Positions 2,552-42,648 of a stretch of DNA of 50,737 bases are shown in pieces (position 1 is the first letter of the stretch; every line of letters begins with the position of its first letter). A model generated the notes under the pieces. That model worked only from the letters and a program-made list of their open reading frames with translations. It did not search any database and was not told where the DNA came from. The DNA is from Candidatus Peregrinibacteria bacterium (GTDB lineage Bacteria > Patescibacteriota > Gracilibacteria > Peribacterales > Peribacteraceae): positions 1 through 50,737 of the forward strand of contig JACPYA010000041.1 in the NCBI GenBank assembly GCA_016196295.1, read 5' to 3'. Both the position numbers and the translations under genes were made by a program.

Positions 2552-3148
2552 ATGCAACTGCAGAAATATTTGGCGGAATTGCTCGGCACCTTCGCCCTCA
2601 CGCTCGCCGTATGGCTGTCGATCGGCTTCTCCATGCCGCTCAGCACCCCGCTCATCGCCGCGATCACGCTGGGCCTCTTTGTCTACACGGTCGGCCACGT
2701 GAGCGGAGCACACCTGAACCCCGCCATCACCTGCGCGCTCATCAGCATCAATAAGATCAAGCCGCAGGACGGAGCGCTCTACATCGTCGCGCAGTTTTTG
2801 GGAGCCATGCTCGCGATGATCGTCGGCCGGATGCTGACGGGCGAGACGGTGCAAGTCGGCGCAAGTAACTCCCTTGCCGTCGGAACAGCAGAGGCGCTCG
2901 GAGCCCTCTTCTTCGCCTTCGGCGTTGCATCCGTTGCCTACAAGAAAGTCCAGATGCCGGCATCTGGCATCGTCGTAGGCGGCTCCCTCCTCCTCGGTAT
3001 CTACGTCGCGCTCAGCCTCAGCAATGGCGTCTTGAACCCGGCCGTCGCGCTCGGCATCGGATCGCTGAACCCCATGTACATCCTCGGTCCCGTCATCGGG
3101 GCCGTCGCCGGTATGTGGGCGTTCCGGTTCCTCTCCGACGAAAAATGA
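2552..3148 (+). CDS. MIP/aquaporin-family channel
   Basis: 198 aa, hydrophobic, with two NPA boxes (HLNPAIT and VLNPAVA) in the expected half-repeat arrangement. Confidence 0.85.
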   Translation: MQLQKYLAELLGTFALTLAVWLSIGFSMPLSTPLIAAITLGLFVYTVGHVSGAHLNPAITCALISINKIKPQDGALYIVAQFLGAMLAMIVGRMLTGETVQVGASNSLAVGTAEALGALFFAFGVASVAYKKVQMPASGIVVGGSLLLGIYVALSLSNGVLNPAVALGIGSLNPMYILGPVIGAVAGMWAFRFLSDEK

Positions 3149-3189
3149 TCGCAGCCATGGAAGGTTGCTTTCCTTCATCATCTTGTTTG

Positions 3190-3669
3190 TTATAAACGAG
3201 AGCGCCCTTCCATGGGCGCGACTCTGATGTGGTAGAGGGCGATCCCCGCCGCGACCGCCACGTTCAATGATTCTTTCTTTCCGAGCATCGGGATTTTTAT
3301 GACCGCATCGCAGACAGAAAGGATATCCTCTGGCACGCCAGAGAGCTCGTGCCCCACGATGAGGCAGATCTTTTGTGGAGGATCGTAATCCTGTAGCTCG
3401 ATCGCATCGGGCGTGAGCTCCAGTGCGACGATTCTCCATCCTTGCTTCTTGAGAGCCTTCAATGTGTGCATGTGGTCCTCGGATTTCTCCCACTGAATGG
3501 TTTCCTCCGCGCCGAGAGCGGTCTTCGTGATTTCTTTGCGTGGCGGCGTTCCCGTGTACCTCGCGAGATAAATCTTCTCGACCGCGCAGGCATCGGCCGT
3601 CCTAAAAAATGACCCGACATTCCAGAGCGAGCGGACATTGTGGGCCATCAATCGGATGCGTCGATCCAT
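3190..3669 (-). CDS. SpoU/TrmH-family RNA 2'-O-methyltransferase
   Basis: 159 aa with the motifs NVGSFFRTADA, LIVGHELSGVP and ESLNVAVAAGIALY, typical of the SPOUT SpoU class. Confidence 0.8.
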   Translation of the reverse strand: MDRRIRLMAHNVRSLWNVGSFFRTADACAVEKIYLARYTGTPPRKEITKTALGAEETIQWEKSEDHMHTLKALKKQGWRIVALELTPDAIELQDYDPPQKICLIVGHELSGVPEDILSVCDAVIKIPMLGKKESLNVAVAAGIALYHIRVAPMEGRSRL

Positions 3670-4923
3670 CTAGAGGTCACTCATGCGTTCGAGCGTGCTC
3701 GCATGGGGATTTGCGAAGACTTCCAGGAGTGCGGACTTTTTGAGATCTTTCTCCGTGACATTGCGGCACGTGTAACAGATGCCCGTCTCGCTCCCCTTTC
3801 CGAATGCAGGCGCTCCGGTATCGGGGATGTCGCGTCGAAGCAGGCTGATGCCGGAAAAGAGTTCCTGCACCTGATCCTCTGTCAGCGGTTCTATTTTCTT
3901 TGCTTCGTTATTCCAGCGGTGCAGTGTTCCCTTCAGACGGACGTATGCGCGCTCCTTGTTGGGATTGAAGTGCCCTAGTTGCTTCAGAACCGACTCGTGG
4001 GACCCGGAGCCAAGCGTGATGTACTTCCACTGCTTCAGCGAGAGCTTGGGGGCAATACGATGTGCCGCTTGTTCCACGGTATGCTCCTCGTTGTTTGTGA
4101 TGATCGTATCGATGAAGATTTCGACGTCCTTCGCCTCTCTCCCCGGGACTTCCCATTTCCACTCGTACGTACTTCCCGGACTTGATGGTTTTTTACCCTT
4201 TTCGATCCAACGTTTCAGCGCGGCGAAATAAGGGGCCCCGTTTGGCGTGCGCTCCGGGTGCGGCATGAGTGCCACGACATTCCCCGCAGGATTGCAGATA
4301 CCGGCAATCGCAAACATCGATCCATTGGGCGTGACGATCGGATCGGTGGAAACATTCCCGTTCTCATCACAGTATTCGAATGCAATCTGCTTATTTTTTT
4401 TGAGTTCCTTGATGAGGTCCGGATCGCGCGTCGTGAAGCGCCCTTCCCCATGCGCGATCGGAAGGTGCATCACGCCATTCCAATCGGACGTTGCGCATCG
4501 ACTGCGATCACTGGGCTTGATCCAGACCCATTCATTCAGAAATCCAACACCGGTCCATGTGCCATTCTCTTCGATCGCGTTTCTCGCCAAGCTCATGTGA
4601 AGTCCGCGATCCAGCGGGATCAAGCCGCTCTCGACGAGGGTCTGCGCACCGTTGCAGTTCCCGATGATCGTCTTCCCCTTAGCGGCTTCGTCGCTTAAAA
4701 ACTTCATCAGCGGATCGCGCGCGGCGACCATGCCCGAACGTCCGCGATCTTCGTAACTGAATCCTCCGGGGATGAAGTATCCATCGATGTCTTTCAACTT
4801 TGCGTGATCGTCATTCCACCGGAAATACACCGCCTCCATTCCCGCGTTCTTGATCGCTCGCAGAGATTCCACCTCACAGTTGTTCCCGGGGAAGGAAACG
4901 ACGGCGACGCGAGAGGCTTTCAT
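3670..4923 (-). CDS. purQ: Phosphoribosylformylglycinamidine synthase glutaminase subunit PurQ with a C-terminal extension of about 150 aa
   Basis: The N-terminal roughly 260 aa carry FPGNNCE, GGFSYED, GNCNGAQ and HGEGRF (a class-I amidotransferase of the PurQ type). I did not recognise the C-terminal extension with confidence; it may be PurS-like. Confidence 0.8.
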   Translation of the reverse strand: MKASRVAVVSFPGNNCEVESLRAIKNAGMEAVYFRWNDDHAKLKDIDGYFIPGGFSYEDRGRSGMVAARDPLMKFLSDEAAKGKTIIGNCNGAQTLVESGLIPLDRGLHMSLARNAIEENGTWTGVGFLNEWVWIKPSDRSRCATSDWNGVMHLPIAHGEGRFTTRDPDLIKELKKNKQIAFEYCDENGNVSTDPIVTPNGSMFAIAGICNPAGNVVALMPHPERTPNGAPYFAALKRWIEKGKKPSSPGSTYEWKWEVPGREAKDVEIFIDTIITNNEEHTVEQAAHRIAPKLSLKQWKYITLGSGSHESVLKQLGHFNPNKERAYVRLKGTLHRWNNEAKKIEPLTEDQVQELFSGISLLRRDIPDTGAPAFGKGSETGICYTCRNVTEKDLKKSALLEVFANPHASTLERMSDL

Positions 4924-5194
4924 GACGGAATGTTACCAGACGTCCTATGATTTTTCATTCCTTTCTTTTTCGCGAGCTGCTCGCACTTCGAGCAAGATTT
5001 GATCGTATATTCAACTATGATATTCATAGACGGATCTGGTGATGGGACTACCTTCGCCTTTTTCATCATGGCCTGCGTGTGCGATGCGCGCCTCGCTAAG
5101 TTTCAACCAGGCGATTTGATCAAGCTCTTTCAGATCAATGGAATAAGCATATCCATCTACTCATTTGATTCGCAATCCTTCATACTATTTATAG

Positions 5195-5291: not shown

Positions 5292-5367
5292 GCCCCCGTA
5301 GCTCAGTGGATAGAGCAGTGGGTTTCTAACCCATTGGCCGTAGGTTCGATTCCTGCCGGGGGTACCA
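5292..5367 (+). tRNA. tRNA-Arg (anticodon TCT) with encoded CCA
   Basis: Hand-folded cloverleaf of 76 nt: acceptor GCCCCCG/CGGGGGT, D arm GCTC-AGTGGATA-GAGC, anticodon loop TTTCTAA, T arm GTAGG-TTCGATT-CCTGC, then A-CCA. Confidence 0.9.
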
Positions 5368-5374
5368 TTGTATT

Positions 5375-5605
5375 ATGCAGCGCATCGGAGTCTATATATT
5401 AGAAGGCAGAAGATTCTATGTTGGCAGCACGACAGATCTTGATCGCAGGCTTCTACAACACGAGAAAGGTCATACACATACTACAAAAAGAATCGGAAAA
5501 TGGGTTTTGAAGAAATTTTTCCCATGTGCTTCGGTCTCAGAAGCCAGAACTCTGGAGGCGCAGATCAAAAAATCAAAGAACATATCTAGATGGCTTACCG
5601 AATAG
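5375..5605 (+). CDS. Small GIY-YIG nuclease-family protein (UPF0213/YhbQ-like)
   Basis: 76 aa: GVYILEGRRFYVGSTTDLDRRLLQHEKG matches the GIY...YVG...R...H core. It begins 7 nt after the tRNA-Arg CCA, and its stop codon lies inside the downstream tRNA fragment. Confidence 0.8.
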   Translation: MQRIGVYILEGRRFYVGSTTDLDRRLLQHEKGHTHTTKRIGKWVLKKFFPCASVSEARTLEAQIKKSKNISRWLTE

Positions 5606-5732: not shown

Positions 5733-6275
5733 ATGAGTACCGATCAGAACTCGGCACCCGCCTCCTCGGGCGCTCCTGTTTCTCCGAGCGCACCGGCGAA
5801 GCCGGTACTCTCTCCGGAGCGAGACATCGAGGAGAACAAAGACCTCGCGGCCTTCAGTTACCTCTGGATCATGTCGGTGATCGTGTATTTCCTCAAAAAA
5901 GATTCGCCGTTCGTGCGTTTCCATAGCAAACAGGCGATGGTGCTCTTCGCGCTCACGATCCCCGTCTGGCTGATCCCCATTGCGCTCATCGGGCGGCTCC
6001 TGGAACTTCTGATCCTCGCGGGGATGATCATCGGCTTTCTCGGTGCCGCGCAGGGGCAGTGGAAGGACGTGCCGTTCATCGGACCGTTCTCGCGCGGGGA
6101 AACGACGCTCCGACAGTCGTGGCAGCAGCTCGTGGCGCGCAGCACGGGACTGTCAAAAGTGTTGAAGAGCATGTTTCGCAGGACGAAGAAGTATGTAGAT
6201 GCTGATGTCACGAAGAGTAAGAAAAATCAGGATACGAACTCTCCACCCCCCTCTGCTCCCCCCTCCTCTCTGTGA
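5733..6275 (+). CDS. DUF4870-type small membrane protein
   Basis: The ATG at 5733 gives 180 aa. The motif AAFSYLWIMSVIVYFLKKDSPFVRFHSKQAMVLF and the TM helices fit this family. The longer ORF from 5526 overlaps the tRNA fragment and is unlikely. Confidence 0.65.
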   Translation: MSTDQNSAPASSGAPVSPSAPAKPVLSPERDIEENKDLAAFSYLWIMSVIVYFLKKDSPFVRFHSKQAMVLFALTIPVWLIPIALIGRLLELLILAGMIIGFLGAAQGQWKDVPFIGPFSRGETTLRQSWQQLVARSTGLSKVLKSMFRRTKKYVDADVTKSKKNQDTNSPPPSAPPSSL

Positions 6276-6395
6276 CCTACAAGCGCATCATCCGCCTGCG
6301 CGGTAAGCAACATCAGAGGTGTCGAAAAAATAATATGGCATTGATCGCCGATACCGCTTCGGCGAGAGTAAAGCCGCCATTTTTCTTATACTCTC

Positions 6396-7103
6396 ATGAA
6401 CTATAAACGCATTATGTTGAAGCTCTCCGGCGAAGTCTTCTCCGGTGACGAAGAGTACGGCATTCATCGGGCGGCATTCCTCGATACCGCGAAGCAGATT
6501 CAAGACGTCTACAAAACCGGCGTGCAGGTCGTGATCGTCGTCGGAGGCGGCAACATCTGGCGCTATCGCGACACCAAGGAAAATGGAATCGAAAGGACTG
6601 TCAGCGATGCGATGGGCATGCTCGCAACCGTCATGAACAGCGTCGCCCTGCAGGCCGCGCTCGAGTCCCTGGGCCTTGAAACACGCGTCCTTTCCGCCAT
6701 CGATATTCCACAGCTCGCAGAACCCTTCATCAAACGCCGAGCCCAGAGGCACCTGCAGAAGAACCGTATCGTCATCTGCGCTGGTGGGACGGGAAACCCG
6801 TACTTCACGACCGACAGTGCCGCCGCGCTCCGTGCGCTGGAACTCTCGTGCGATGTGCTCCTCAAAGCAACGAACGTCGATGGCGTCTATGACAAGGACC
6901 CGAACAAGCACAAGGATGCCGTCAAATACGACGAGCTCACGTTCCAGCAGGCGCTCGACAAGCACCTCGACATCATGGATCAAGCGGCCTTCAGCCTCTG
7001 TCAGGACCAGTCGCTCCCCATCGTCGTGTTCAATTTTATGAAAAAAGGATCGCTGCTCAAGGCCGCCAAAGGCGAGAAGATCGGAACATTTGTCCGCGCA
7101 TAG
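6396..7103 (+). CDS. pyrH: UMP kinase
   Basis: 235 aa with KRIMLKLSGE, VVGGGNIWR and GTGNPYFTTDSAAALRA, the classical PyrH motifs. Confidence 0.95.
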   Translation: MNYKRIMLKLSGEVFSGDEEYGIHRAAFLDTAKQIQDVYKTGVQVVIVVGGGNIWRYRDTKENGIERTVSDAMGMLATVMNSVALQAALESLGLETRVLSAIDIPQLAEPFIKRRAQRHLQKNRIVICAGGTGNPYFTTDSAAALRALELSCDVLLKATNVDGVYDKDPNKHKDAVKYDELTFQQALDKHLDIMDQAAFSLCQDQSLPIVVFNFMKKGSLLKAAKGEKIGTFVRA

Positions 7104-7560
7104 AGTGAGTAGTGAGTAGTGAGTAGTTTGTAGTGAGTAGGAAACTTCTATACAGTGAACCGCTATGCCCATTCAGAGCTATCGGGATCTTATTGTGTGG
7201 CAAAAGTCCATGGATCTTGTGACCCTCGTCTACAAACTGACCAAGGACTTTCCAAAAGATGAGTTGTACGGGCTAACGTCGCAAATGAGACGGAGTGCTG
7301 CATCCATTCCTTCCAATATTTCAGAAGGAAGCAGAAGATCTACACGCAAGGAGTTCAGAAGATTCCTCTGTATCGCTTATTCGTCAGGAGCTGAGCTGGA
7401 AACTCAATTAGAAATCGCTATTCGCCTCGAATATGGTAATCTGGTGTTCATTCAGGAAGCTCAAAATCTCCTTACAGAAATTATGAAGATGCTTAATAAA
7501 ATGACTTATTCACTCAAGCCAGCAGTCTCTGTTAACTACTCACTACCAACTACCCACTGA
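7103..7560 (+). mobile_element. IVS-like hairpin element carrying a four-helix-bundle gene, inserted between pyrH and frr
   Basis: The 5' arm at 7103-7141 is (GTGAGTA)n-like (AGTGAGTAGTGAGTAGTGAGTAGTTTGTAGTGAGTAGG). The 3' arm at 7536-7558 (CTACTCACTACCAACTACCCACT) is its imperfect complement. The ORF lies in the loop. Confidence 0.7.
7165..7560 (+). CDS. Four-helix-bundle protein (23S rRNA intervening-sequence protein family)
   Basis: 131 aa: YRDLIVWQKSMDLV...FPKDELYGLTSQMRRSAASIPSNISEGSRRST-KEF..FL.IAYSSGAELETQL is the family signature. Confidence 0.9.
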   Translation: MPIQSYRDLIVWQKSMDLVTLVYKLTKDFPKDELYGLTSQMRRSAASIPSNISEGSRRSTRKEFRRFLCIAYSSGAELETQLEIAIRLEYGNLVFIQEAQNLLTEIMKMLNKMTYSLKPAVSVNYSLPTTH

Positions 7561-7563
7561 TCC

Positions 7564-8106
7564 ATGTCCGACCCACGTATCGTCCAGTTTCATGCGGCTG
7601 CCGAAAAAGTACTCACGTTCCTACACGCTGAATATTCAAAATTGCAGACGGGACGCGCAAACGCATCGCTTATCGAGCACATCGAGGTCGATGCGTACGG
7701 GCAGAAACAGCCGCTCAAAACCATTGCCGGCATCAATGTCACGGATGCCCGTTCCATCGCCATCCAACCGTGGGACCGATCGATCATCGCCAATGTCGAG
7801 AAGGCGTTGCAGGTCGCCGATCTCGGCATCAATCCCGTCAATGACGGCGTCCTCGTGCGCATGAATTTCCCGCCGATGACGCAGGAACGCCGCGAGCAGA
7901 TCGTGAAGGTGGTCCATAAACTCGCCGAAGAAGCGAAAATATCGCTCCGCAAACACCGCCAGGACGTGCATGACTCCATTAAAGGGGAGAAGGACGAAGA
8001 CGTAAAAGAGACGCTGGTCGAGCAGCTGCAGAAAGAAGTGGATGCAGCGAACGCAAAAATCGTCGATTCGGCGAAGAAGAAAGAGCAGGAGGTGATGACT
8101 GTTTGA
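7564..8106 (+). CDS. frr: Ribosome recycling factor
   Basis: 180 aa with RTGRANASLIEHIEVDAYG and NDGVLVRMNFPPMTQERR, the typical Frr pattern. Confidence 0.95.
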   Translation: MSDPRIVQFHAAAEKVLTFLHAEYSKLQTGRANASLIEHIEVDAYGQKQPLKTIAGINVTDARSIAIQPWDRSIIANVEKALQVADLGINPVNDGVLVRMNFPPMTQERREQIVKVVHKLAEEAKISLRKHRQDVHDSIKGEKDEDVKETLVEQLQKEVDAANAKIVDSAKKKEQEVMTV

Positions 8107-9126
8107 TCAATCTTGCAGATGCTCCGTGAAGAATTCTTTTGATTTCAGCATGAAGTCGCTCCACTGCGGGCCGAACTCATGGCCCTCGCCGGGATATTCG
8201 ACGTATTCGATTTCTTTTCCAAGTTGCGTCAGCATTTTCACGAGCTCGTCGGACCATTCCTTTGGAACATCTTTGTCGTTATCACCGTGAAAGACGAGCA
8301 CTGGCACGGCGATCTTCGAAAGATGATTCTTCGAGGAGAGTGCCTGCCAGAAGGCCGGATTTTCTTCGTAGCGTCCGTAGAGCTCTACGGTGCGATCGTC
8401 GTCATCGCGCCGGTCACGCCACCGCTCGAAGTTCTTCCAGGCGTCCGTGTGTACCGGTGCGTAGAGGACTGCGGCATCGACCGCGTCCGGATACGCAGTG
8501 ATGATGTTCTGCGTGATGCCCCCGCCCATCGAGTGGCCCAGCATCCCCACGCGACTCGCATCGATCGAGGGAATCTTTGCTTCGCGAATCGCGTCGATAC
8601 CGTTCAGAACGTCCATGCTGTACTCGAGTCCTGCATCATAGACCTTTCGCTCATCGGGGCTCTCGTCGCCGCCCGCATGGCCGCGATAGTCGCTGTGGAG
8701 CACGGCAAACCCGTTGCGGGCCAAGTAATCCTGCTCGCGCTTGAGTCCCCTGCCGTTCGTATAAATGTCACGGTCGATGTAGCCGTGATTGAGCAGCAGA
8801 AGCGGAAATGAACCCTGCCCCTTGGGAACGTTCAGAATGCCCGTGATCAGAAGACCATTGCTCCGATAGGAAATCGTGTATCGCGTGTAGAGCGCGTGAT
8901 CGCCGAGGACGTCCTCCAGACGGAAATCCGATCCCTCTAATCGCATGTTTCCGAAGGAATCGAGCGTCAGTTCCGGCGGAACCTGATGCAGTACGTCACT
9001 CGCAGAGGATGCGAATGAAGTTTCTGCAGACGATGAGCCATTCGTCGAAACCCCGGCATCGGTCGTCGCGACAGGATCGCAGCCGAGAAGCAACCCGAGC
9101 GTCCAGAGGATCAATGTCTTTTTCAT
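8107..9126 (-). CDS. Secreted or lipoprotein alpha/beta hydrolase (S9/dienelactone-hydrolase-like)
   Basis: The ATG at 9126 gives MKKTLILWTLGLLLGC (a lipobox). It has the nucleophile elbow GHSMGG and a C-terminal GDNDKDVP...H pattern. The ORF extension upstream of 9126 is probably not coding. Confidence 0.75.
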   Translation of the reverse strand: MKKTLILWTLGLLLGCDPVATTDAGVSTNGSSSAETSFASSASDVLHQVPPELTLDSFGNMRLEGSDFRLEDVLGDHALYTRYTISYRSNGLLITGILNVPKGQGSFPLLLLNHGYIDRDIYTNGRGLKREQDYLARNGFAVLHSDYRGHAGGDESPDERKVYDAGLEYSMDVLNGIDAIREAKIPSIDASRVGMLGHSMGGGITQNIITAYPDAVDAAVLYAPVHTDAWKNFERWRDRRDDDDRTVELYGRYEENPAFWQALSSKNHLSKIAVPVLVFHGDNDKDVPKEWSDELVKMLTQLGKEIEYVEYPGEGHEFGPQWSDFMLKSKEFFTEHLQD

Positions 9127-20395: not shown

Positions 20396-20495
20396 CGGTT
20401 TTTGGTTTATGGTTTTTTGTTTTTCGTTCGGCAGATATACGAATGAAATCGCGTGTTCTCGGAAAACGAAAAACCAAAAACGAATCAACGAAAAA
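20396..20495 (-). repeat. ORF-less simple-repeat hairpin between gnd and the M23 peptidase gene
   Basis: The plus-strand arms are GGTTTTTGGTTTATGGTTTTTTGTTTTTCGTT and AACGAAAAACCAAAAACGAATCAACGAAAAAC, with a loop of about 30 nt. The architecture matches the arms around the four-helix-bundle genes. Confidence 0.6.
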
Positions 20496-20498
20496 CAT

Positions 20499-21944
20499 TC
20501 ATTGCCATTTTGTATGAAATGAACCCGGTTTGTCCAATCGTTCATACGTGTGTGCACCAAAGTAATCGCGCTGCGCCTGCGTGAGATTTTGCGGCAGCCA
20601 AGCGGTGCGGTAGGCATCGAAGTAGGTGAGGGATGCGGCCAGCGCCGGGAGCGGGATGGCATGGAGCGCGCCGAGTGCGACGACTCTGCGCCACTGTAAC
20701 TGCCGTTCATCACTGAATCGATCTCGAATCTCCTTCGAGGCCTTCTCATCTCCTTTGAAAGATTCCTGAAAGATGGACAGCACATCGCTCCGGATGATGC
20801 ATCCTCCACGCCAGATTCGTGCGACCTCACTCACGTTCAGACTCCATTTTTCTTCGGCGCTGGGAACGAACAGCAGTTGAAAGCCTTGCGCGTAGGTATT
20901 CAGGACGGAAAGTTCGAGCGCGGCGCGAACCATTTCGATGAGCACTTTTTTGTCGTAGGACACGGAGGTATCCTTCGTAAGATTGGCATGTTTGCTCATC
21001 TGCATGCGGAAATCTCGACCTCCGGAGACGATGCGCGCATCGACCGCCGCGGTGATCGTCGGCACCGCGACGCCGTAGTGCATCGCGGCATCCGTGGTCC
21101 ACTTTCCAGTCCCCTTCTGACCGGCGGCATCCTTGATAACATCGATGAGGTCCTTCTTCGTGTCGGGATCTTTCTCGCGCATCACCTTTGCGGCGATCTC
21201 GACGAGGAAGGAATGCAAGTATCCCCCATTCCATGTTTCAAATGCCTGCGCGATGTCAGCGTTCGTCATGTTTCCCTCCACTTTGAGGAGGTGATACGCC
21301 TCCGCAAGGAGCTGCATGATCCCATACTCGATCCCGTTATGGACCATCTTCACGAAATGCCCTACGCCTCCTTTGCCGAGATACGTGACACACTTTCCTT
21401 TCGCGCCGCCTGTGGTGCCCGTCTCGGCGCGGCCGAGCCGCGACGGAAGCAAAGTCGAACCATCGTCGGCAGCCATCTTTTTGAGGAGGGGTTCAAGCAC
21501 AGCGTACGCCTCCTTCGATCCGCCCGGCATCATGCTTGGACCCTTCAGCGCCCCCTCTTCTCCACCGCTCACGCCGAGCCCGATCAGGTGAATCCCCTTC
21601 TCCAAAAGCTGCGCCTCGCGTTTCTCCGTATCCCTATAATGGCTGTTGCCGGCGTCGATCACGATATCTCCCTTCTGAAGATGGGGAAGCAATTCCTTCA
21701 GCACCTGATCGACCGCTTCGCCCGCTTTGACCATCAAAAGAATCGGGCGAGGAGGTTTGAGCGCTTTCGCAAGCTCCGCGTAGGTTTTACAGGCGACGAA
21801 GACCCCTTCCTTTCCGTGCTCTTCGATAAATGCATCAAGTTTTTCTTTCGTGCGATTGTACACGGCAACCGTTGCTCCATTGCGGGCGGCATTGCGGGCA
21901 AGGTTTGCCCCCATTGTGCCGAGGCCGATCAATCCTAGTTGCAT
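20499..21944 (-). CDS. gnd: 6-phosphogluconate dehydrogenase (decarboxylating)
   Basis: 481 aa with GLIGLGTMGANLARN, GVSGGEEGA and a conserved C-terminal dimerisation domain. Confidence 0.95.
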   Translation of the reverse strand: MQLGLIGLGTMGANLARNAARNGATVAVYNRTKEKLDAFIEEHGKEGVFVACKTYAELAKALKPPRPILLMVKAGEAVDQVLKELLPHLQKGDIVIDAGNSHYRDTEKREAQLLEKGIHLIGLGVSGGEEGALKGPSMMPGGSKEAYAVLEPLLKKMAADDGSTLLPSRLGRAETGTTGGAKGKCVTYLGKGGVGHFVKMVHNGIEYGIMQLLAEAYHLLKVEGNMTNADIAQAFETWNGGYLHSFLVEIAAKVMREKDPDTKKDLIDVIKDAAGQKGTGKWTTDAAMHYGVAVPTITAAVDARIVSGGRDFRMQMSKHANLTKDTSVSYDKKVLIEMVRAALELSVLNTYAQGFQLLFVPSAEEKWSLNVSEVARIWRGGCIIRSDVLSIFQESFKGDEKASKEIRDRFSDERQLQWRRVVALGALHAIPLPALAASLTYFDAYRTAWLPQNLTQAQRDYFGAHTYERLDKPGSFHTKWQ

Positions 21945-22375
21945 GATATGTTGGTAGCTTGGTAGCTTGGTAGCGGGGTAGCTGGTTTGGAAGTTCCGAT
22001 GCGATTTGGTTTTGTATGTTCATGTAAATAACGCATTAATTTTGCTAGTTGTGCTCCGATTTTTTTGGTCATCGCTGAAGCCTCTTCAAATTCCTTTTCT
22101 AAGACATACCCATCGTCCAGACCGGGATACAGCAGAGATCGAACCTCTGCAGCTGAGCGCTTTGCATAACCGAGAAACATAATGAATTCTGGATTCGTGG
22201 TCGCATCGTTCCCCTCTGCAATATTCGCCATTATGGAAACCGTAGCTCTGCTAATTTGATCGGCCCAAGCCCAATCTTTTTTTGCAACCGCCCTTTTCGT
22301 AAATTTTCGAACCAGTCGCATTAAGCTGCGAGCTTCTTTCCACGCCTCTATGTCTTCAAAGGATGCGAATGCCAT
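21935..22375 (-). CDS. Four-helix-bundle protein (23S rRNA IVS protein family)
   Basis: 146 aa: SFEDIEAWKEARSL...ADQISRATVSIMANIAEGNDATTNPEFIMFLGYAKRSAAEVRSLL. Confidence 0.9.
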   Translation of the reverse strand: MAFASFEDIEAWKEARSLMRLVRKFTKRAVAKKDWAWADQISRATVSIMANIAEGNDATTNPEFIMFLGYAKRSAAEVRSLLYPGLDDGYVLEKEFEEASAMTKKIGAQLAKLMRYLHEHTKPNRIGTSKPATPLPSYQATNISCN

Positions 22376-22425
22376 AAAAAAAAATTAACGAGCTACCAAG
22401 CTACCAATGCTACCCAGCTACCTTC
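21945..22425 (-). mobile_element. IVS-like hairpin element carrying a four-helix-bundle gene, inserted between tal and gnd
   Basis: The arms are (GGTAGCT)n at 21950-21990 on the plus strand and (AGCTACC)n at 22390-22425. In gene orientation the G/T-rich arm is at the 5' side, as at 7103. Confidence 0.7.
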
Positions 22426-23051
22426 TTCCAGTCATCCAAGAACCTCTTCAACCCGACATCCGTCAGCGCATGCTGCGGCAATTTCTTGAAGACATCGACC
22501 GGCACGGTGCAGATGTGTGCGCCGAGTTTGGCTGCATCGACGATGTGACGCGGATGACGCGTGGACGCGACGAGCACCTCACAATCGAAATCGTACTGGA
22601 GCCAGATCTGCATGATCTCTCCGATGAGCGCCATGCCGTTTTCCCCGATGTCATCGAGACGGCCGATGAACGGGCTGATGATGTTCGCCCCTGCTTTCGC
22701 CGCGAGGACCGCTTGTGCTGCGGAGAAAATCAAGGTCGTATTGGTGCGGATTCCCTTTGAACGGAAGTAATGCAGTGCCTTGAGCCCTTCCGTCGTCATC
22801 GGCACTTTCACGACCACGTGCTTATGCCAGCTCGCGTATTCTTCGCCCTGCTTCTTCATCCCTGCGAAATCCGTCGCCGTCACCTGCGCGCTGACGCACG
22901 GAACGTGCTTGCACATCTCGATGACCGTCTTCTTAAAATCTTTTCCTTCCTTGGCGACGAGGGACGGATTGGTCGTAACGCCGTCGAGCACTCCCCAGGA
23001 AGCGATCTCCGCTACACTTTCGACATTGGCAGTGTCTAGGAATAATTTCAT
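22410..23051 (-). CDS. tal: Transaldolase, short (fructose-6-phosphate aldolase-like) type
   Basis: 213 aa with MKLFLDTANV, GVTTNPSL, VVKVP and ISPFIGRLDD. Confidence 0.95.
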   Translation of the reverse strand: MKLFLDTANVESVAEIASWGVLDGVTTNPSLVAKEGKDFKKTVIEMCKHVPCVSAQVTATDFAGMKKQGEEYASWHKHVVVKVPMTTEGLKALHYFRSKGIRTNTTLIFSAAQAVLAAKAGANIISPFIGRLDDIGENGMALIGEIMQIWLQYDFDCEVLVASTRHPRHIVDAAKLGAHICTVPVDVFKKLPQHALTDVGLKRFLDDWKKVAG

Positions 23052-24602: not shown

Positions 24603-24793
24603 AAGTTGGCGGCATTATTGGCATTCGCGCCTCTATGTCAATTTGATCGTTTGCTTGAGCTGAGAATCCTTCATCCCTACACTCAAAATGACCGCAGGCG
24701 GGAATGCCTGCCGCTCCCCTTTCATCCATGCCCCGTTCCAGACCTCCGAAAGAAACACTCATCGGGAAAGATCCGTCCATTGTTCCCCTTTCG

Positions 24794-27148
24794 ATGCAGC
24801 GAATCTTCCAGACACAGGAGCAGGTGGAAAGCATCTGGATTGGGCCAGAAGATGCCAAAAAGTTGAGCACAGATGACCTGAAAGCCTACGACCTCGCGAA
24901 GAAGATCATGGCGCACCTCTGCATCCAGGCGCCGACCAAACACAAGTCCGGGCACCCCGGCGGACCGCTTTCCTCTTTCACGTTCGCCTACTTCCTCTAT
25001 AAGCGCCGTGATCTGTCTACCGATGCGCCCTTTCGCATGAGCGCCGGGCATTTGAGCCTGCTTGCCTACGGGCTCCAATGGCTGTTCCATCGCGAGGGAT
25101 CCGACCCTCGACTCCAGAGTCCTCAGACGATCATCGATGCGTTCAGGGTTCCCGACGGGCTTCCCGGTCACGTGGAGGCGGGCATCGGCGACATCCCGTT
25201 CGGCGCGGGCCCGCTGGGGAAAGGCGTCAGCAATGCCCTCGGTGTCGCGTTTGGCATGCAGTACCTGAAGAAACAGGGTGCCGTCGATGTCCTGATGGCG
25301 GACGGCGACGCGCAAGAAGGACAGATCATGGAAGCCTTCCGTCTTGCATCGCACTTGGGACTCGGAAACCTTCTCGTTCACGGAGATTTCAACGACATTC
25401 AGTTGAGCGATATGCCGAGCCGCACGGTGGCTGCGGACTTCGCGCAGATCGCGAAGGCAGCAGGGTGGCAAGTGATCGAGGTGCAGAATGGGAATGACCC
25501 GGGACAAGCGGTCGCGGGGCTCGACCTCGCCGATACGCTCCGATCCAAAGGCAAACCCATCTTCCTCTGCTACTACACGACCATGGGCCACGGCGTGAAG
25601 GTGATGGAGGAAGGCTCGAACACCGGGAAGGCGAACTACCACGGCTCGCCGCTCAAAGATGACGTCGCGGCGCAGGCGCTGAAGGATCTGCCCCCACTCG
25701 AGGAGCTTGTCACGCAGTACCAGCCGTACCGACGACAGTGGAAAGTGGAAAGTGCAAAGTGGAAAGCCGGTCCATTGTCTCCCCCGCCGAAAATCGAGAG
25801 AACCATCACGGCGGAAAAAGGCGCGGCGCGGCAGGACTTCGGCGCGGTGCACCTGAAAAATCTCATGAACGCCGATGCGCGCATCGTCATCCTGCACGCG
25901 GACCTCGCGGCGTCCGGCGGCTTCGACCCTTCGGCGCGCTTCGCTTGCTCAGGGCAAGCACCTCGCGTCATAAACGTTGGCGTGGCGGAAGCGAACATGT
26001 ACATGATGGCGGCGGGGATGCGCCAAGCGGGACTGCTCCCGGTGACCTACACGTTCGCGGCTTTCGGCACGAATGAAGCGAGGGCGAACGCGCGCCTCAT
26101 TGACATCAATTGCGGCCACACGCGCTGCGCGGTGCTCCACGACTGCACGCACGCGGGGCTCTCCGTCGGCGAAGACGGCGAGACGCATCAAGAGCGAAAT
26201 TACCTGAATATCCCGCTGGACCGCACGCAGGTCTGGATGCCAGGCGACAGCAACCAAGCGGCGGCGATGGCGGAACGCGGGATGGAGCTGATCGCGGAAG
26301 GCACGACGAGCGTCTATGTCTTCTTCCCCCGGAGCGGCCACGAGCAGCTGAAAACTCCCACAGGCGAAGTGATCTACGGAAAAGAGTATCGCTTCGACGG
26401 CAAAATCGACCTCATCCGCGGCAAAAACGACGCAACCGACCAGGTGACGATCATCGCGACGGGCATCCCCGTCCATGATGCGGTGCTGGCCGCGGATGCC
26501 CTCGCAGCGAATGGACGAGTGGAAAGAGGAAAGAGGAAAGAGGAAAAAGAACGGACAAAACTTTCCACTTTCCACTCTCCACTTTCAACTTCTCCGCACT
26601 TTCCACTTTCCCTGCCCGTCCGGCAGGCGGGCACTTTCAATTTTCCACTTCGTGTAAGAGTGCTGAACGTCTCCTGCGTCCGCCCCATCGACGCCTCGGC
26701 GATCATCCAGGCGGCGCTCGAGACGTCGCATTTGATCGTCGTCGAAGATCACCACAGTGAAGGAGGACTCGCGACGCAGGTCGCAGACATCATCGCGGAC
26801 TTCCAGCTCCCCTGCTCGCTGCGCCGTCTCGGCGTGAACCACTATTTTCCCTCCGGCACGGACAAAGACCTCAAGTTCCTCGCCGGTCTCGACTGGGAGA
26901 GCATCGTGAACGCGGTGCTGGATGAATTACACTCGGAAGTGACGGGAGGCGAAGATGCTCTTGTAACAGCCATTTTTGCGATGTCGAAGAATGCGAAAGA
27001 GAGCCGGTTCCAGGATGCCGCGGCACCCTTCATCGATCGGCTCAAAAACGAGAAAGGCTATCTGGAATCCTTGCGAGCCGCGTGGGCGAAGCGCTCCTGT
27101 CCGCCGGAGAAGCTGCCGGACAATGCGCGGCTCAGAAGTCTGATCTGA
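24794..27148 (+). CDS. tkt: Transketolase (N- and C-terminal halves fused) with repeat-derived insertions
   Basis: It contains HPGGPLS, GDG..QEG (the ThDP site), a Pyr domain (GVAEANM) and a C-terminal domain. The ATG at 24794 is the likely start. See the findings for the insertions at 25737 and 26516. Confidence 0.9.
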   Translation: MQRIFQTQEQVESIWIGPEDAKKLSTDDLKAYDLAKKIMAHLCIQAPTKHKSGHPGGPLSSFTFAYFLYKRRDLSTDAPFRMSAGHLSLLAYGLQWLFHREGSDPRLQSPQTIIDAFRVPDGLPGHVEAGIGDIPFGAGPLGKGVSNALGVAFGMQYLKKQGAVDVLMADGDAQEGQIMEAFRLASHLGLGNLLVHGDFNDIQLSDMPSRTVAADFAQIAKAAGWQVIEVQNGNDPGQAVAGLDLADTLRSKGKPIFLCYYTTMGHGVKVMEEGSNTGKANYHGSPLKDDVAAQALKDLPPLEELVTQYQPYRRQWKVESAKWKAGPLSPPPKIERTITAEKGAARQDFGAVHLKNLMNADARIVILHADLAASGGFDPSARFACSGQAPRVINVGVAEANMYMMAAGMRQAGLLPVTYTFAAFGTNEARANARLIDINCGHTRCAVLHDCTHAGLSVGEDGETHQERNYLNIPLDRTQVWMPGDSNQAAAMAERGMELIAEGTTSVYVFFPRSGHEQLKTPTGEVIYGKEYRFDGKIDLIRGKNDATDQVTIIATGIPVHDAVLAADALAANGRVERGKRKEEKERTKLSTFHSPLSTSPHFPLSLPVRQAGTFNFPLRVRVLNVSCVRPIDASAIIQAALETSHLIVVEDHHSEGGLATQVADIIADFQLPCSLRRLGVNHYFPSGTDKDLKFLAGLDWESIVNAVLDELHSEVTGGEDALVTAIFAMSKNAKESRFQDAAAPFIDRLKNEKGYLESLRAAWAKRSCPPEKLPDNARLRSLI
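26516..26652 (+). mobile_element. ORF-less hairpin element of about 135 nt inserted in frame in tkt
   Basis: GTGGAAAGAGGAAAGAGGAAAGAGG ... CTTTCCACTTTCCACTCTCCAC form inverted arms. The CCCTGCCCGTCCGGCAGGCGGGCACTTTC hairpin is identical to the one at 42510-42540 and 42576-42606. Confidence 0.7.
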
Positions 27149-35066: not shown

Positions 35067-35421
35067 TGGCGGAGAGGGAGGGTCTGCTTCGCGCTTTTGC
35101 TCTGCAAAGCTACGCAAGGCAGAGAGCTACGCAGACCAGAAATGTCGTTTTGCGAATGAATATCCAGAGCCTTGTTTTAGATAACGTTCAAATATCTCGG
35201 CTTTCTGTCGGTCTGAAAAAGTTACGACAACTTCGATTTTCCACGGAACATGCGGGCTTGTTGTTTTAGTCAGTGTGCGATTGTGCTCATCCATTCGCAC
35301 ACGAGGATCTTTGGTTGTGTATCCTACATATGTCATCCGGGGATTTTTGATGCTTCGCAGAAGATATACGTGATACATAGTTCCCTATCGTAGCCAATTC
35401 TGCAAAGCTTGCGAAGTAGGA
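35067..35421 (-). mobile_element. Putative autonomous GIY-YIG mini-element bounded by tRNA-Ser 3'-end copies
   Basis: The left boundary is TGGCGGAGAGGGAGGG (35067-82, the same 16-mer as the 3' end of tRNA-Ser(GCT)) followed by the hairpin GGTCTGC...GCAGACC. The right end is GCAAAGCTTGCGAAGTAGGA, followed by TGGCGG. The ends are homologous to the ends of the 67- and 75-nt ORF-less units. Confidence 0.6.
35127..35378 (-). CDS. Small GIY-YIG nuclease-family protein
   Basis: 83 aa: MYHVYLLRS...TYVGYTTKDPRVRMDEHN...AEIFERYLKQGSG. The stop codon TAG lies within the GCGTAGCT core of the terminal hairpin. Confidence 0.75.
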   Translation of the reverse strand: MYHVYLLRSIKNPRMTYVGYTTKDPRVRMDEHNRTLTKTTSPHVPWKIEVVVTFSDRQKAEIFERYLKQGSGYSFAKRHFWSA

Positions 35422-35583
35422 TGGCGGTTCTTCTCCGCAAGCTACGAAGAACATTCACTTGCATTGCTCTGCACGAGATCCTACGTAGCTTGCGAAGTAG
35501 GATGGCGGTTCTTCTCCGCAAGCTACGAAGAACATTCACTTGCATTGCTCTGCACGAGATCCTACGTAGCTTGCGAAGTAGGA
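35422..35583 (-). repeat. Two tandem 81-bp units (a 75-nt MITE-like element plus the TGGCGG duplication) abutting the 3' end of tRNA-Ser(TGA)
   Basis: The units start at 35422 and 35503, and the third TGGCGG (35584) is the tRNA 3' end itself. Each unit has two hairpins whose 12-nt loops (TTCGCAAGCTAC and GTAGCTTGCGGA) are mutually complementary. Confidence 0.85.
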
Positions 35584-35673
35584 TGGCGGAAGCGGGAGGA
35601 TTCGAACCTCCGATGCTCTTGCGAGCATACCTGTTTTCAAGACAGGCCCGATCAACCACTCCGGCACGCTTCC
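35584..35673 (-). tRNA. tRNA-Ser (anticodon TGA) with a long variable arm and encoded CCA
   Basis: The reverse complement reads GGAAGCGTGCCGGAGTGGTTGATCGGGCCTGTCTTGAAAACAGGTATGCTCGCAAGAGCATCGGAGGTTCGAATCCTCCCGCTTCCGCCA. Confidence 0.9.
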
Positions 35674-35760: not shown

Positions 35761-36262
35761 ATGGAGCGGAAAGCGTAAAGCAAAGAGCGTAAAGTGCGAA
35801 GGACAGAAAGAAACCGTAAAGCTGAACAGGAGATTTGCTACGATAGGATCATGCATCAAGATAGCCCTTTGAAGAGAAAAACGTACGCATTCGCGTTGCG
35901 CGTGACATTGCTCTGCAAAAAATTGATGGAAGAGAAGAAAGAATATGTTCTGAGTAAACAATTTTTGAAGAGCGCGACGAGTATTGGCGCAAATGTCGCA
36001 GAGGCCCAACATGCGCAAAGCCGAAATGATTTTGCAGCAAAGCTTTCCATTGCCTTGAAAGAAGCCTGGGAAAGCGATTTCTGGATTCATCTTCTCTGTG
36101 ATGCTTCGTATATCGGGCACAGCACAGGAGAGGAACTCTTGAGAGATCTTTCGGAAATCATCGCTCTCCTCACATCGAGCATCAAGACAGCAAGAAAAAA
36201 TTCCCTTTAAACTCGCCACTCTCTGCTCTTTGCTCTGCGTTCTACGCTCTCTGCTTACTTCT
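35761..36262 (+). mobile_element. IVS-like hairpin element carrying a four-helix-bundle gene
   Basis: The 5' arm is GGAGCGGAAAGCGTAAAGCAAAGAGCGTAAAGTGCGAAGG. The 3' arm is CTCTCTGCTCTTTGCTCTGCGTTCTACGCTCTCTGC (GCAAAGAGC/GCTCTTTGC and AGAGCGTA/TACGCTCT pair). Confidence 0.65.
35851..36210 (+). CDS. Four-helix-bundle protein (23S rRNA IVS protein family)
   Basis: 119 aa from the ATG at 35851: TYAFALRV..LCKKL...KEYVLSKQFLKSATSIGANVAEAQHAQSRNDFAAKLSIALKEAWES.FW..LL. Confidence 0.85.
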   Translation: MHQDSPLKRKTYAFALRVTLLCKKLMEEKKEYVLSKQFLKSATSIGANVAEAQHAQSRNDFAAKLSIALKEAWESDFWIHLLCDASYIGHSTGEELLRDLSEIIALLTSSIKTARKNSL

Positions 36263-42240: not shown

Positions 42241-42314
42241 GGAGTGGAAAGTGAGACGGAGAGTGGAAAGTTGAAGGTGGAAAGTGGAAAGAGAAAAGGT
42301 TAAGATAGCAAACT

Positions 42315-42458
42315 ATGGTTCCTGAGCCCCTGCGATTTTGGCTGCGACTCATCACTGATGCAAGCTATGCTCCGGATACAAGAACAAAGCTACTGCAGGA
42401 AGAACTCACATCAATTATTTCCATGCTCGTTCAGAGCATTAAGACCGCCAAGATCGTC
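42315..42458 (+). pseudogene. Truncated four-helix-bundle gene (C-terminal helix region only)
   Basis: EPLRFWLRLITDASYAPDTRTKLLQEELTSIISMLVQSIKTAK aligns with the C-terminus of the 35851-36210 protein (ESDFWIHLLCDASYIGHSTGEELLRDLSEIIALLTSSIKTARK). The N-terminal two thirds are missing. It is flanked by GTGGAAAG / CTTTCCAC repeat arms. Confidence 0.7.
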
Positions 42459-42490
42459 CATAACTTTCCATTTACCACTTTACACTTTCC

Positions 42491-42622
42491 ACTCTTCACG
42501 GTCCGTAACTTTCCCTGCCCGTCCGGCAGGCGGGCACTTTCTACTTTGCACTTTTCACTCTTCACGGTCCGTAACTTTCCCTGCCCGTCCGGCAGGCGGG
42601 CACTTTCCACTTTCCATTTTGC
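42491..42622 (+). repeat. 66-bp tandem duplication (x2) containing the CCCTGCCCGTCCGGCAGGCGGGCA hairpin
   Basis: CTCTTCACGGTCCGTAACTTTCCCTGCCCGTCCGGCAGGCGGGCACTTTC occurs at 42491 and at 42557. Confidence 0.85.
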
Positions 42623-42648
42623 ATTTTCCACTTCCATTTAAGGCGCAT

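Follow-up and report, generated by a model that had tools for sequence, protein, structure and literature searches.

The 460-nt gap between pyrH and frr was made up of a 5' arm, a 131-aa IVP ORF and a 3' arm, and we consider it probable (roughly 60%) that this unit, cassette A, is a cassette of the intervening sequence (IVS) type lying in an mRNA operon: a gene that lacks a promoter of its own, encodes a basic four-helix-bundle protein, is set in inverted heptamer arms and was acquired from outside. This reading is preferred because heptamers likewise precede the S23p ORF in the 23S IVS of Coxiella, and RNase III cuts there. The features of the locus, in the coordinates of the window (the whole stretch of 50,737 nucleotides that was analysed), were as follows.

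6396–7103, plus strand: pyrH (UMP kinase), from the ORF list; TIGR02075, E = 9e-94
7101–7103, plus strand: TAG stop codon of pyrH, directly abutted by the 5' arm of cassette A
7104–7145, plus strand: 5' arm of cassette A, (AGTGAGT) × 5.3, i.e., N4-TAG units
7165–7560, plus strand: IVP (four-helix-bundle) gene of cassette A, 131 aa; PF05635 and TIGR02436
7531–7558, plus strand: 3' arm of cassette A, CTA-N4 units (AACTACTCACTACCAACTACCCACT), complement of the 5' arm
7564–8106, plus strand: frr (ribosome recycling factor), downstream half of the split pair; TIGR00496, E = 2e-53

Tandem Repeats Finder placed AGTGAGT, with a period of 7 and 5.3 copies, at 7104–7140, and a frame count found TAG in all three frames of this 5' arm. 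The inverted arms were detected as 7104–7128 with 7534–7558 (25 nt, 88% complementary) and as 7118–7145 with 7531–7558 (28 nt, 86% complementary). The 3' arm overlapped the TGA stop codon of the ORF (7558–7560) and coded for the C-terminal tail of the protein, NYSLPTTH, and the ATG of frr was located 5 nt beyond the end of the arm. The IVP gene lay on the same strand as pyrH and frr, and no promoter- or terminator-like sites were returned by a scan of the plus strand of 6200–8300. A preliminary description of this DNA had treated the gap as a single arm–ORF–arm unit, with a 3' arm that is an imperfect complement of the 5' arm and overlaps the ORF stop; both points were borne out, the first by the repeat finder, the inverted repeats, the profile matches and the fold.

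Further cassettes were present in the window.

21935–22422, minus strand: cassette B, between transaldolase (22410–23051) and gnd (20499–21944)
22386–22422, minus strand: 5' arm of cassette B, TTGGTAGC-type 8-mers, holding the tal stop codon
21951–21983, minus strand: 3' arm of cassette B, inverted repeat with 22386–22422
21935–22375, minus strand: IVP ORF of cassette B, its tail overlapping the gnd start; PF05635, E = 2e-24
35764–36249, plus strand: cassette D, between a tRNA (35587–35673, minus strand) and the 3' end of a gene at 36255–37808 (minus strand)
35764–35796 and 36217–36249, plus strand: arms of cassette D, AGCGTAA-type, without periodic TAG
35794 (or ATG at 35851) to 36210, plus strand: IVP ORF of cassette D; PF05635, E = 2.5e-23
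42243–42633, plus strand: cassette E, decayed, with a 5' arm of (AGTGGAA)n at 42243–42291
42315–42470, plus strand: IVP remnant of cassette E, last helix only; E = 7e-10 against the D protein

The preliminary description had counted three further loci of the same architecture; two of these (B and D) were intact, and the third (E) was decayed to the last helix. The 3' arm of cassette E was duplicated (42463–42495 and 42601–42633), with a GC hairpin between the copies. The IVP proteins of A, B and D were 23–29% identical to one another.

Folding of 7090–7575 gave MFE and centroid structures in which, as had been anticipated, the arms closed the whole unit (z = −2.46, with 1/100 shuffles equal). 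The arm–arm duplex of cassette A reached −35.9 kcal/mol, compared with −16.9 ± 4.1 for the shuffles (z = −4.7, reached by 0/300), and the duplexes of cassettes B and D gave z = −8.7 (−51.9 kcal/mol) and z = −4.5, respectively. Across the cassettes of the window, the duplex z thus ranged from −4.5 to −8.7 and was equalled by 0/300 shuffles. The z values of the whole-cassette folds were −2.5, −3.2 and −0.2 for A, B and D, respectively, those of A and D being modest; the fold of cassette B was closed by its arms.

Complementary flanking arms above control were found in 94% of 80 IVP genes from many bacterial phyla, a figure that denotes the IVP loci above the 95th percentile of the frr control (p = 6e-23). 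Arm complementarity was scored by local alignment in place of RNA duplex energies, which for long flanks (130 × 230 nt) mainly reflected length and GC and separated own and cross pairs poorly. Median scores were 33 for arms of one locus, 17 for arms of different loci and 16 for the frr control. The order of variant units was mirrored between the two arms, and arm polarity was consistent, the 5' arm being C-poor and the 3' arm G-poor. Heptamer repeats are common in the window, and heptamers have been reported as over-represented in bacteria (PMC4692102), as would suit ordinary microsatellites flanking a small gene by chance or neutral slippage. This explanation is scarcely credible and was refuted by the within- versus between-locus scores, the frr control and the duplex shuffles; the 94% of IVP genes above control, the mirrored unit order and the consistent polarity also speak against it.

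The upstream gene was co-directional with the IVP gene at 59/63 loci and usually ended at or in the 5' arm (median stop-to-arm gap −1 nt). The downstream gene was co-directional at 49/64 loci and started beyond the 3' arm, at a median distance of 9 nt, and the IVP start codon was located just inside the 5' arm. At cassette B, the ORF-neighbour heuristic called the upstream gene opposite-strand because it picked an antisense ORF that is spurious; the actual upstream gene is transaldolase, which runs in the same direction and ends in the arm. The same layout was seen in viral-classified contigs. Among the cultured bacteria, Gaetbulibacter aestuarii JCM 17455 (locus L072) has a cassette, and XCC0516 of Xanthomonas campestris and alr0549 of Nostoc belong to the protein family. 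A search of 40 related IVP loci and the window with Rfam returned tRNAs only, with an rRNA context at 0/40 of the related loci and no match of the arms to a known RNA family. In this sample, the usual habitat of IVP genes was therefore the boundary of two co-directional protein genes and not rRNA, and the layout was stereotyped: a TAG-heptamer arm, the ORF and a CTA-heptamer arm, with borders that coincide with the stop and start codons of the neighbours. Our literature search returned no paper in which IVP genes outside rRNA are tied to hairpin arms of heptamers, and we could not find an earlier description of the hairpin-arm layout around IVP genes of many phyla.

The view that pyrH and frr are normally adjacent and are interrupted here proved correct: the two genes were adjacent in 64/80 related loci, and in none of these 64 did an IVP gene lie between them. 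Comparison of pyrH–frr spacing also brought up the empty sites, with the IVP gene absent from the spacer (15–151 nt) in 18/18 of the closest relatives, whose pyrH and frr were 67–88% and 56–79% identical, respectively. The GC content of cassette A was 42.7%, compared with 55–57% in its flanks, and cassettes B and D were likewise of low GC. Because of the empty sites in relatives and the low GC, cassette A fits an insertion of outside (foreign) origin, placed exactly in the pyrH–frr spacer. Of the cassette, the closest relative (L081) retained only CACTAGCAACTACTTAC, homologous to the 3' arm of A, directly before frr, and this apparent remnant shows that loss, and not gain alone, has taken place at the site.

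The protein of cassette A matched PF05635 over its full length (positions 1–106 of 106; E = 4e-39, 133.5 bits against a cut-off of 33.8) and TIGR02436 (E = 6e-37, 126.3 bits against a cut-off of 24), confirming that the ORF encodes a four-helix-bundle protein of the IVS family. Its sequence also matched solved four-helix-bundle pentamers (PDB 2GSC, E = 6e-24; 2RLD, E = 2e-7). Its pI was 9.3, and the IVP proteins were basic (pI 8.9–9.3). One search alone brought up 7,856 relatives, and the database sequence closest to A was 69% identical. To our knowledge, PF05635/TIGR02436 is a very large family without a known function, named after rare copies in rRNA. No PADLOC defence model matched the three IVP proteins of the window at E ≤ 0.01.

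The only characterised relative of IVP that we know of is Avd, which acts through a reverse transcriptase, and cassette A gave weak matches to the bAvd (PF22296, E = 3e-4) and DivGenRetAVD (NF033474, E = 5e-5) models. These scores were far under the curated cut-offs (21.8 against 40 bits and 23.5 against 80 bits, respectively). The neighbours were pyrH and frr; a reverse transcriptase and a template/variable repeat pair were absent at the locus, and no reverse transcriptase adjoined the other window cassettes. It is most improbable that the gene encodes the Avd accessory protein of a diversity-generating retroelement. Avd and IVP are alike in their homologous, basic and pentameric four-helix-bundle fold (PDB 4DWL and 2GSC, as cited in PMC10053308).

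The arms followed a common pattern, (N4-TAG)n on the 5' side and (CTA-N4)n on the 3' side, mostly with 4–5 units. TAG was enriched 4-fold in the arms (208 observed against 52 expected) and was periodic in 50/66 of them, and 46/66 of the 5' arms had stops in all three sense frames, compared with 9.4 expected. The periodic stop was TAG, in preference to TAA and TGA; a pure role as any stop codon does not account for this bias. About 80% of arm positions were Watson–Crick paired, and complementarity was 94% at TAG positions and 75% at spacer positions. Arm similarity tracked protein similarity (Mantel test, 0/2000 permutations), and the units AGTGAGTAG / AGTTTGTAG were common to cassette A and 3/8 of its closest protein relatives (L001, L002 and L009). 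The arms had been described as entirely different in sequence, which was overstated given the family-wide periodic TAG/CTA and the units shared with these three relatives. Selection on pairing rather than on arm sequence is, as originally worded, not supported, in view of the TAG enrichment, the 94% versus 75% complementarity and the Mantel result. Because of the TAG periodicity, the TAG complementarity and the tracking of protein by arm similarity, the arms are, judging from these patterns, under sequence-level constraint and co-inherited with the protein, besides pairing. The idea that the 5' arm was copied, during insertion, from a spacer already present in the host was considered and rejected, since L001, L002 and L009 carry the same units.

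Under the preferred reading of an IVS-type cassette in an mRNA operon, the cassette would be transcribed as part of the host operon, and the arms of the transcript would pair as a stem of ~25–35 bp that loops out the IVP ORF, so that the stop of the upstream gene and the start of the downstream gene meet at its base. RNase III would cut this stem, as in the homologous 23S rRNA IVS, and so part the transcript into pyrH, IVP and frr segments. Any reading frame entering from upstream would be halted by the periodic TAG at the border of the cassette, and it is proposed that insertion at a gene boundary is tolerated because upstream frames are stopped in this way. The periodic stop was absent in some arms, those of D and E included, which counts against this proposed role.

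The arm mismatches comprised 86 G.U and 110 A.C pairs (p = 0.10). Because there was no excess of G.U over A.C, the usual sign of sense-strand RNA-level selection is missing, which would allow for a process acting on DNA or for repeat units that turn over rapidly. The arms might be terminal inverted repeats that bound a foldback element or a non-autonomous transposon and are recognised in trans by a transposase, a recombinase or a single-strand hairpin enzyme, with IVP as a passenger or accessory and RNA pairing incidental. Such an element would be consistent with the mismatch pattern, with the high complementarity at TAG/CTA, as for a protein recognition array, with the co-inheritance of arms and ORF and with the patchy presence and foreign GC. 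MITE-like, ORF-less derivatives were also found, in the window and at locus L097. In the window they were the following.

20397–20496, minus strand: hairpin F, ORF-less, (GGTTTTT)n / (AAAACCA)n with a 36-nt loop
~26513–26611: a second ORF-less heptamer hairpin, within the transketolase ORF

Hairpin F (−27 kcal/mol, z = −2.9) filled the spacer downstream of gnd and had the arm polarity of the IVP cassettes. Several results stand against a DNA-level element, which we regard as unlikely. No transposase or recombinase adjoined any window cassette, and target-site duplications were not detected, the longest word shared by the outer flanks being 3.5 nt within and 3.6 nt between loci, although the arm boundaries are fuzzy enough for short duplications to have been missed. 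A DNA-only element would not need the orientation bias towards the flanking genes (59/63), and the arms differed widely between cassettes, TAG excepted. The identical IVP proteins P0047 and P0029, each on 17 contigs, were always in one genomic context, and therefore gave no sign of recent transposition; multiple near-identical cassette copies at different sites were found neither for these two nor for the window IVPs. From the patchy distribution and GC, we infer that the cassettes may nevertheless be mobile.

TRAP binds spaced (G/U)AG triplets, and by analogy a ring-forming IVP might bind the 4–5 UAG (or CUA) triplets in single-stranded RNA. Binding would compete with the stem and could set the translation of IVP itself, the access of RNase III or the translational coupling of the upstream and downstream genes. 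The periodicity of TAG specifically, and not of TAA or TGA, and its place as the best-conserved part of the arm would suit such a regulatory RNA–protein module. The peak at 4–5 units per arm, the basic pI and the position of the IVP start codon immediately within the 5' arm would suit it too, as would the homopentameric toroid formed by 2GSC, the solved structure most closely related to IVP (PMC4990558). However, the comparison is pure analogy, cassettes D, E, L037, L051 and L078 were without TAG, and Avd works via a reverse transcriptase, which adjoined none of the window cassettes. We consider this module quite improbable.

The likeness to the architecture of 23S rRNA IVS, noted in the preliminary description, held up. 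The IVS of Coxiella is closed by a terminal stem of 28 bp, and tandem heptamers precede its S23p ORF; it was cleaved by RNase III in vitro, the ends mapped by RACE fall in the stem, and the cut is at the first repeat (PMC4990558). The 23S IVS of Coxiella burnetii and Leptospira share with cassette A a PF05635 protein, a terminal inverted-repeat stem (~28 bp) whose loop holds the ORF, tandem heptamers in the 5' part before the ORF, a GC content below that of the host and a patchy distribution. Unlike these, cassette A is located in the pyrH–frr mRNA spacer and not in 23S helix 9, 25 or 45, and its cleavage by RNase III is a prediction, whereas that of the Coxiella IVS has been shown. The cassette arms also carry a periodic TAG, while the Coxiella repeat unit is GACAGAT, with a copy number that varies between strains (PMC4990558). 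The nature and spread of IVS elements have been a standing question since the 1990s (PMC4990558).

MITEs and REP/BIME elements are likewise short, intergenic and bounded by inverted repeats, and ORF-less derivatives occur in the window. In contrast to them, the arms of the cassettes consist of tandem simple repeats, with differences from copy to copy, a target-site duplication was not found, and most cassettes carry a conserved protein gene. Integron cassettes are promoterless and hold a single gene bounded by attC, an element that varies in sequence but keeps its structure. The IVP cassette is similar in being a promoterless single gene bounded by a recombination or structure element, but attC is located at one cassette end only and folds locally, whereas two arms bracket the IVP ORF, and neither an integrase nor a cassette array is present.

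Intergenic heptamer arrays have been described as TAACTGA in Beggiatoaceae, cyanobacteria and Bacteroidetes, as GGGAATC in Xanthomonas, where 70–75 convergent (inverted) pairs occur, and as cyanobacterial STRR (PMC4679880, PMC4692102). As in the IVP cassettes, the 7-nt units are located in spacers between co-directional genes, and the forward orientation holds stop codons and often ends beside a start codon; array lengths vary among close relatives (PMC4679880, PMC4692102). A link to IVP/S23p is absent from these papers, '23S' occurring in neither of them and 'S23' or 'four helix' not in PMC4679880. The IVP cassettes offer a possible origin for these unexplained repeats. More broadly, and tentatively, IVP/S23p could be one widespread class of gene-boundary cassette, of which the 23S IVS and many orphan heptamer arrays (TAACTGA, GGGAATC and STRR-type) would be special cases or remnants. 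The (N4-TAG)4–5 / (CTA-N4)4–5 arms would then serve as three-frame insulator, RNase III stem and array for a pentameric IVP ring, which would control processing, translational coupling or cassette mobilisation; this combined proposal is more doubtful than not.

For annotation, the cassettes flag repeat hairpins that are in frame within enzymes, and upstream genes that take their stop codon from an inserted element. TAG was the stop codon of 31/59 upstream genes, compared with 18/46 downstream controls, a weak enrichment.

The gap between pyrH and frr contains a hairpin-bracketed ORF of the four-helix-bundle, S23p-type family (IVP), referred to as cassette A, with the following features:

6396–7103, pyrH (equivalog model match)
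7104–7140, 5' arm of cassette A, 5.3 copies of AGTGAGT, directly abutting the pyrH stop codon
7165–7560, IVP ORF of cassette A, 131 aa
7531–7558, 3' arm of cassette A, overlapping the TGA stop codon of the IVP ORF
7564–8106, frr (equivalog model match), beginning 5 nt past cassette A

In a profile search, the cassette A ORF matched TIGR02436 (E = 6e-37) and the entire length of PF05635 (E = 4e-39), and the nearest solved structures were 2GSC (E = 6e-24) and 2RLD. The arms displayed 86–88% complementarity across 25–28 nt. When 7090–7575 was folded, the arms closed both the MFE and centroid structures (z = −2.46), and the arm–arm duplex alone reached −35.9 kcal/mol compared with −16.9 ± 4.1 in shuffles. 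Because the arms close the fold and the duplex lies far below the shuffles, cassette A is a real feature and not a chance product. The profile matches, repeats, fold and duplex energy confirmed the hairpin-bracketed IVP ORF of the preliminary description, including the fold and HMM search that it had proposed.

The pyrH–frr pair had been described as normally adjacent, and the spacing comparison bore this out. Among 80 loci with frr from a metagenome scan, pyrH was directly 5' of frr in 64, and no IVP lay between the two genes in any of these 64. The spacers of the 18 closest relatives (pyrH 67–88% identical) measured 15–151 nt. In the closest relative, L081, the spacer was 35 nt, and its last 20 nt (CACTAGCAACTACTTAC) aligned with the 3' arm of cassette A (CACTACCAACTACCCAC) directly before the frr ATG. 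We read this spacer end as a leftover of the same cassette, so the site has seen both gain and loss. Solo CTA-type heptamer arrays, pyrimidine-rich and located just before frr, were present in the spacers of L085–L087, L090 and L091 (CCCTAAC x6 in L087), and the L097 spacer carried an ORF-less hairpin, (TGGTTxx)n/(AAAACxA)n. The arrays and hairpin in these loci and L081 may be what is left of separate cassettes that had inserted at this position. The frr leaders in this clade were C/T-rich and had no Shine-Dalgarno sequence. The overall GC content of the window was 57.7%, and that of cassettes A, B and D was 42.7%, 44.8% and 45.5%, respectively, compared with 55–57% in the flanks. Judged from sequence comparison, cassette A is an insertion.

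Further loci of this kind were identified in the window:

21935–22375, minus strand, cassette B ORF (PF05635, E = 2e-24), between the transaldolase gene and gnd
22386–22422 and 21951–21983, arms of cassette B, TTGGTAGC-type
35794–36210, plus strand, cassette D ORF (PF05635, E = 2.5e-23)
35764–35796 and 36217–36249, arms of cassette D
42243–42633, locus E, (AGTGGAA)n/(CTTTCCA)n arms with an IVP remnant
20397–20496, heptamer hairpin without an ORF

Cassettes B and D were both intact, with the same layout as cassette A, and their predicted folds were likewise arm-closed (duplex z-scores of −8.7 and −4.5, respectively). The transaldolase ORF terminated at a TAG within arm B, and the gnd start overlapped the tail of IVP B. 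In locus E, the D-type IVP remnant is reduced to its last helix (E = 7e-10). Pairwise identity among the three intact IVPs was only 23–29%.

A scan of species-representative genomes yielded 80 IVP loci (relatives 47–67% identical), mostly from Patescibacteria/CPR and otherwise from Gammaproteobacteria, Bdellovibrionales, Gemmatimonas, Flavobacteriia isolates, Saprospiraceae, Planctomycetes, Prevotella and spirochaetes. To score the arms, the 230 nt after the conserved core were reverse-complemented and aligned with the 130 nt 5' of the ORF. The median score was 33 within loci and 17 between loci; identically constructed frr controls had a median of 16 and a 95th percentile of 20.6, which was exceeded by 94% of the IVP genes (Mann-Whitney p = 6e-23). 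Viral-classified contigs showed the same arm–ORF–arm layout, and no rRNA context was found in the 40 loci tested. One Saccharibacteria contig (L032) carried two cassettes with different arms, at 2951–3365 and 4500–4966, 1.1 kb apart. The gene for another IVP, P0004, followed two adjoining ORFs of 93 aa and 133 aa, each matching RrnaAD (rRNA adenine dimethylase family), which looks like a split ksgA adjoining the cassette.

Cassettes were 407–546 nt long, and their borders match gene borders. With neighbors defined as ORFs of at least 90 aa, 59 of 63 loci had a co-directional 5' neighbor. The stop codon of this neighbor lay at or within the 5' arm, and the gap had a median of −1 nt and mostly ranged from −25 to +19. 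The 3' neighbor was co-directional in 49 of 64 and started a median of 9 nt past the 3' arm.

The 5' arms were built of N4-TAG units and the 3' arms of CTA-N4 units, mostly 4–5 per arm. A period of 7 was the commonest (33 of the 41 5' arms above the repeat-score cut-off, 39 of 80 being below it), with period 8 less frequent and 9 rare. In 66 well-defined 5' arms, TAG occurred 208 times against 52 expected by composition, and TAA (38 vs. 50 expected) and TGA (34 vs. 52 expected) were not enriched. TAG was spaced at 7–8 nt in 50 of these arms; stops occupied all three sense frames in 46 (9.4 expected) and all three antisense frames in 43 of 66 3' arms. The 5' arms were C-poor (8%) and the 3' arms G-poor (9%). 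Of the TAG positions, 94% were complementary to the opposite arm, compared with 75% of positions in the 4-nt spacer (odds ratio 5.4, p = 6e-35). Arm similarity rose with protein similarity (Mantel r = 0.28, reached by 0 of 2000 permutations), and the cassette A units AGTGAGTAG and AGTTTGTAG recurred in L001, L002 and L009, whose proteins are 64–67% identical to that of cassette A; therefore, the arms are a component of the cassette that accompanies the ORF. Selection on arm pairing rather than arm sequence had been proposed: pairing held, but freedom of sequence did not, since periodic TAG is enriched and arms track the protein. On these alignments, the arms are constrained in sequence as well as in pairing. 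An account of the arms purely at the RNA level fits poorly with mismatches that show no G.U excess (86 vs. 110 A.C), with a preference for TAG only and not stop codons in general, and with the absence of stops from some arms. The TAG preference, the 4–5 units per arm, the basic protein (pI ~9) and its pentameric homologues led us to speculate that some protein, perhaps IVP itself, might bind the TAG triplet array.

According to Warrier et al. (2016, PMC4990558), the Coxiella 23S rRNA intervening sequence (IVS) combines a terminal stem of 28 bp with an S23p ORF, carries two or three tandem GACAGAT heptamers just 5' of that ORF, and has a GC content below that of the genome. Cassette A shares this design but lacks the defining rRNA site. 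The proposed analogy with IVSs is thus supported by anatomy and published precedent, and the element is an IVP-family member that, on this analogy, would work like an IVS outside rRNA. Some CPR rRNA insertions are reported to contain 23S_rRNA_IVP ORFs (PMC11270868). Intergenic heptamer arrays with stop codons, among them TAACTGA (PMC4679880) and, in Xanthomonas, inverted pairs of GGGAATC (PMC4692102), were catalogued as unexplained and not tied to IVP genes. Within incomplete literature coverage, no earlier account was found of either TAG-heptamer arms or an IVP cassette placed in an mRNA spacer; to our knowledge, this widespread pattern has not been described before.

The best-supported reading is that the IVS-type cassette lacks a promoter and is transcribed together with the host operon; the plus-strand scan around cassette A found nothing promoter-like or terminator-like. 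The arms would pair as a stem of ~25–35 bp with the ORF looped out, placing the upstream stop beside the downstream start. RNase III would cut this stem, as expected from the homology with rRNA IVSs, and the three-frame TAGs would halt upstream translation at the cassette border. We infer that the cassette is processed and mobile. Movement by classical transposition is disfavored, as target duplications were not found, each identical IVP protein was confined to one context, and there was no PADLOC match.

Other repeats were observed in the window. The transketolase ORF (24704–27148, 814 aa) carried an in-frame, ORF-less hairpin, (GGAAAGA)n/(ACTTTCC)n, and after it a GC-rich hairpin (26513–26635; −46.5 kcal/mol, z = −3.5), the former in the linker joining the Pyr and C domains; the N-Pyr linker held a solo (AGTGGAA)x4 array (25737–25766). 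The heptamer arms inside this gene had no stop codons and were translated (…KLSTFHSPLSTSPHFPLSLPVRQAG…). The exact 25-nt GC-rich palindromic hairpin CCCTGCCCGTCCGGCAGGCGGGCAC occurred three times against 0 expected (26610–26634, 42513–42537 and 42579–42603), always joined to ACTTTCC-type 3' arms, and in locus E it belonged to a 66-nt unit repeated 2.2 times. Solo heptamer-type arrays were also found in ORF 302–2449, (AAACCAA)x3.6 being translated in frame (855–879), and immediately 5' of its likely ATG, (TTCGCACTTGGCAC)x2.2 (281–311). Small GIY-YIG ORFs lay near tRNA genes, at 5375–5605 (plus strand, 76 aa, PF01541 E = 4e-11; tRNA 5292–5364) and 35127–35378 (minus strand, 83 aa, PF01541 E = 1e-12; tRNA 35587–35673). 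A perfect 81-nt tandem repeat (35406–35589, 2.3 copies, 100% identity) adjoined cassette D and stopped at the 3' end of the latter tRNA gene (minus strand) with a 3-nt overlap. A 189-nt tandem repeat (36966–37424, 2.4 copies, 81% identity) encoded repeated protein modules in the 517-aa ORF 36255–37808 (minus strand).
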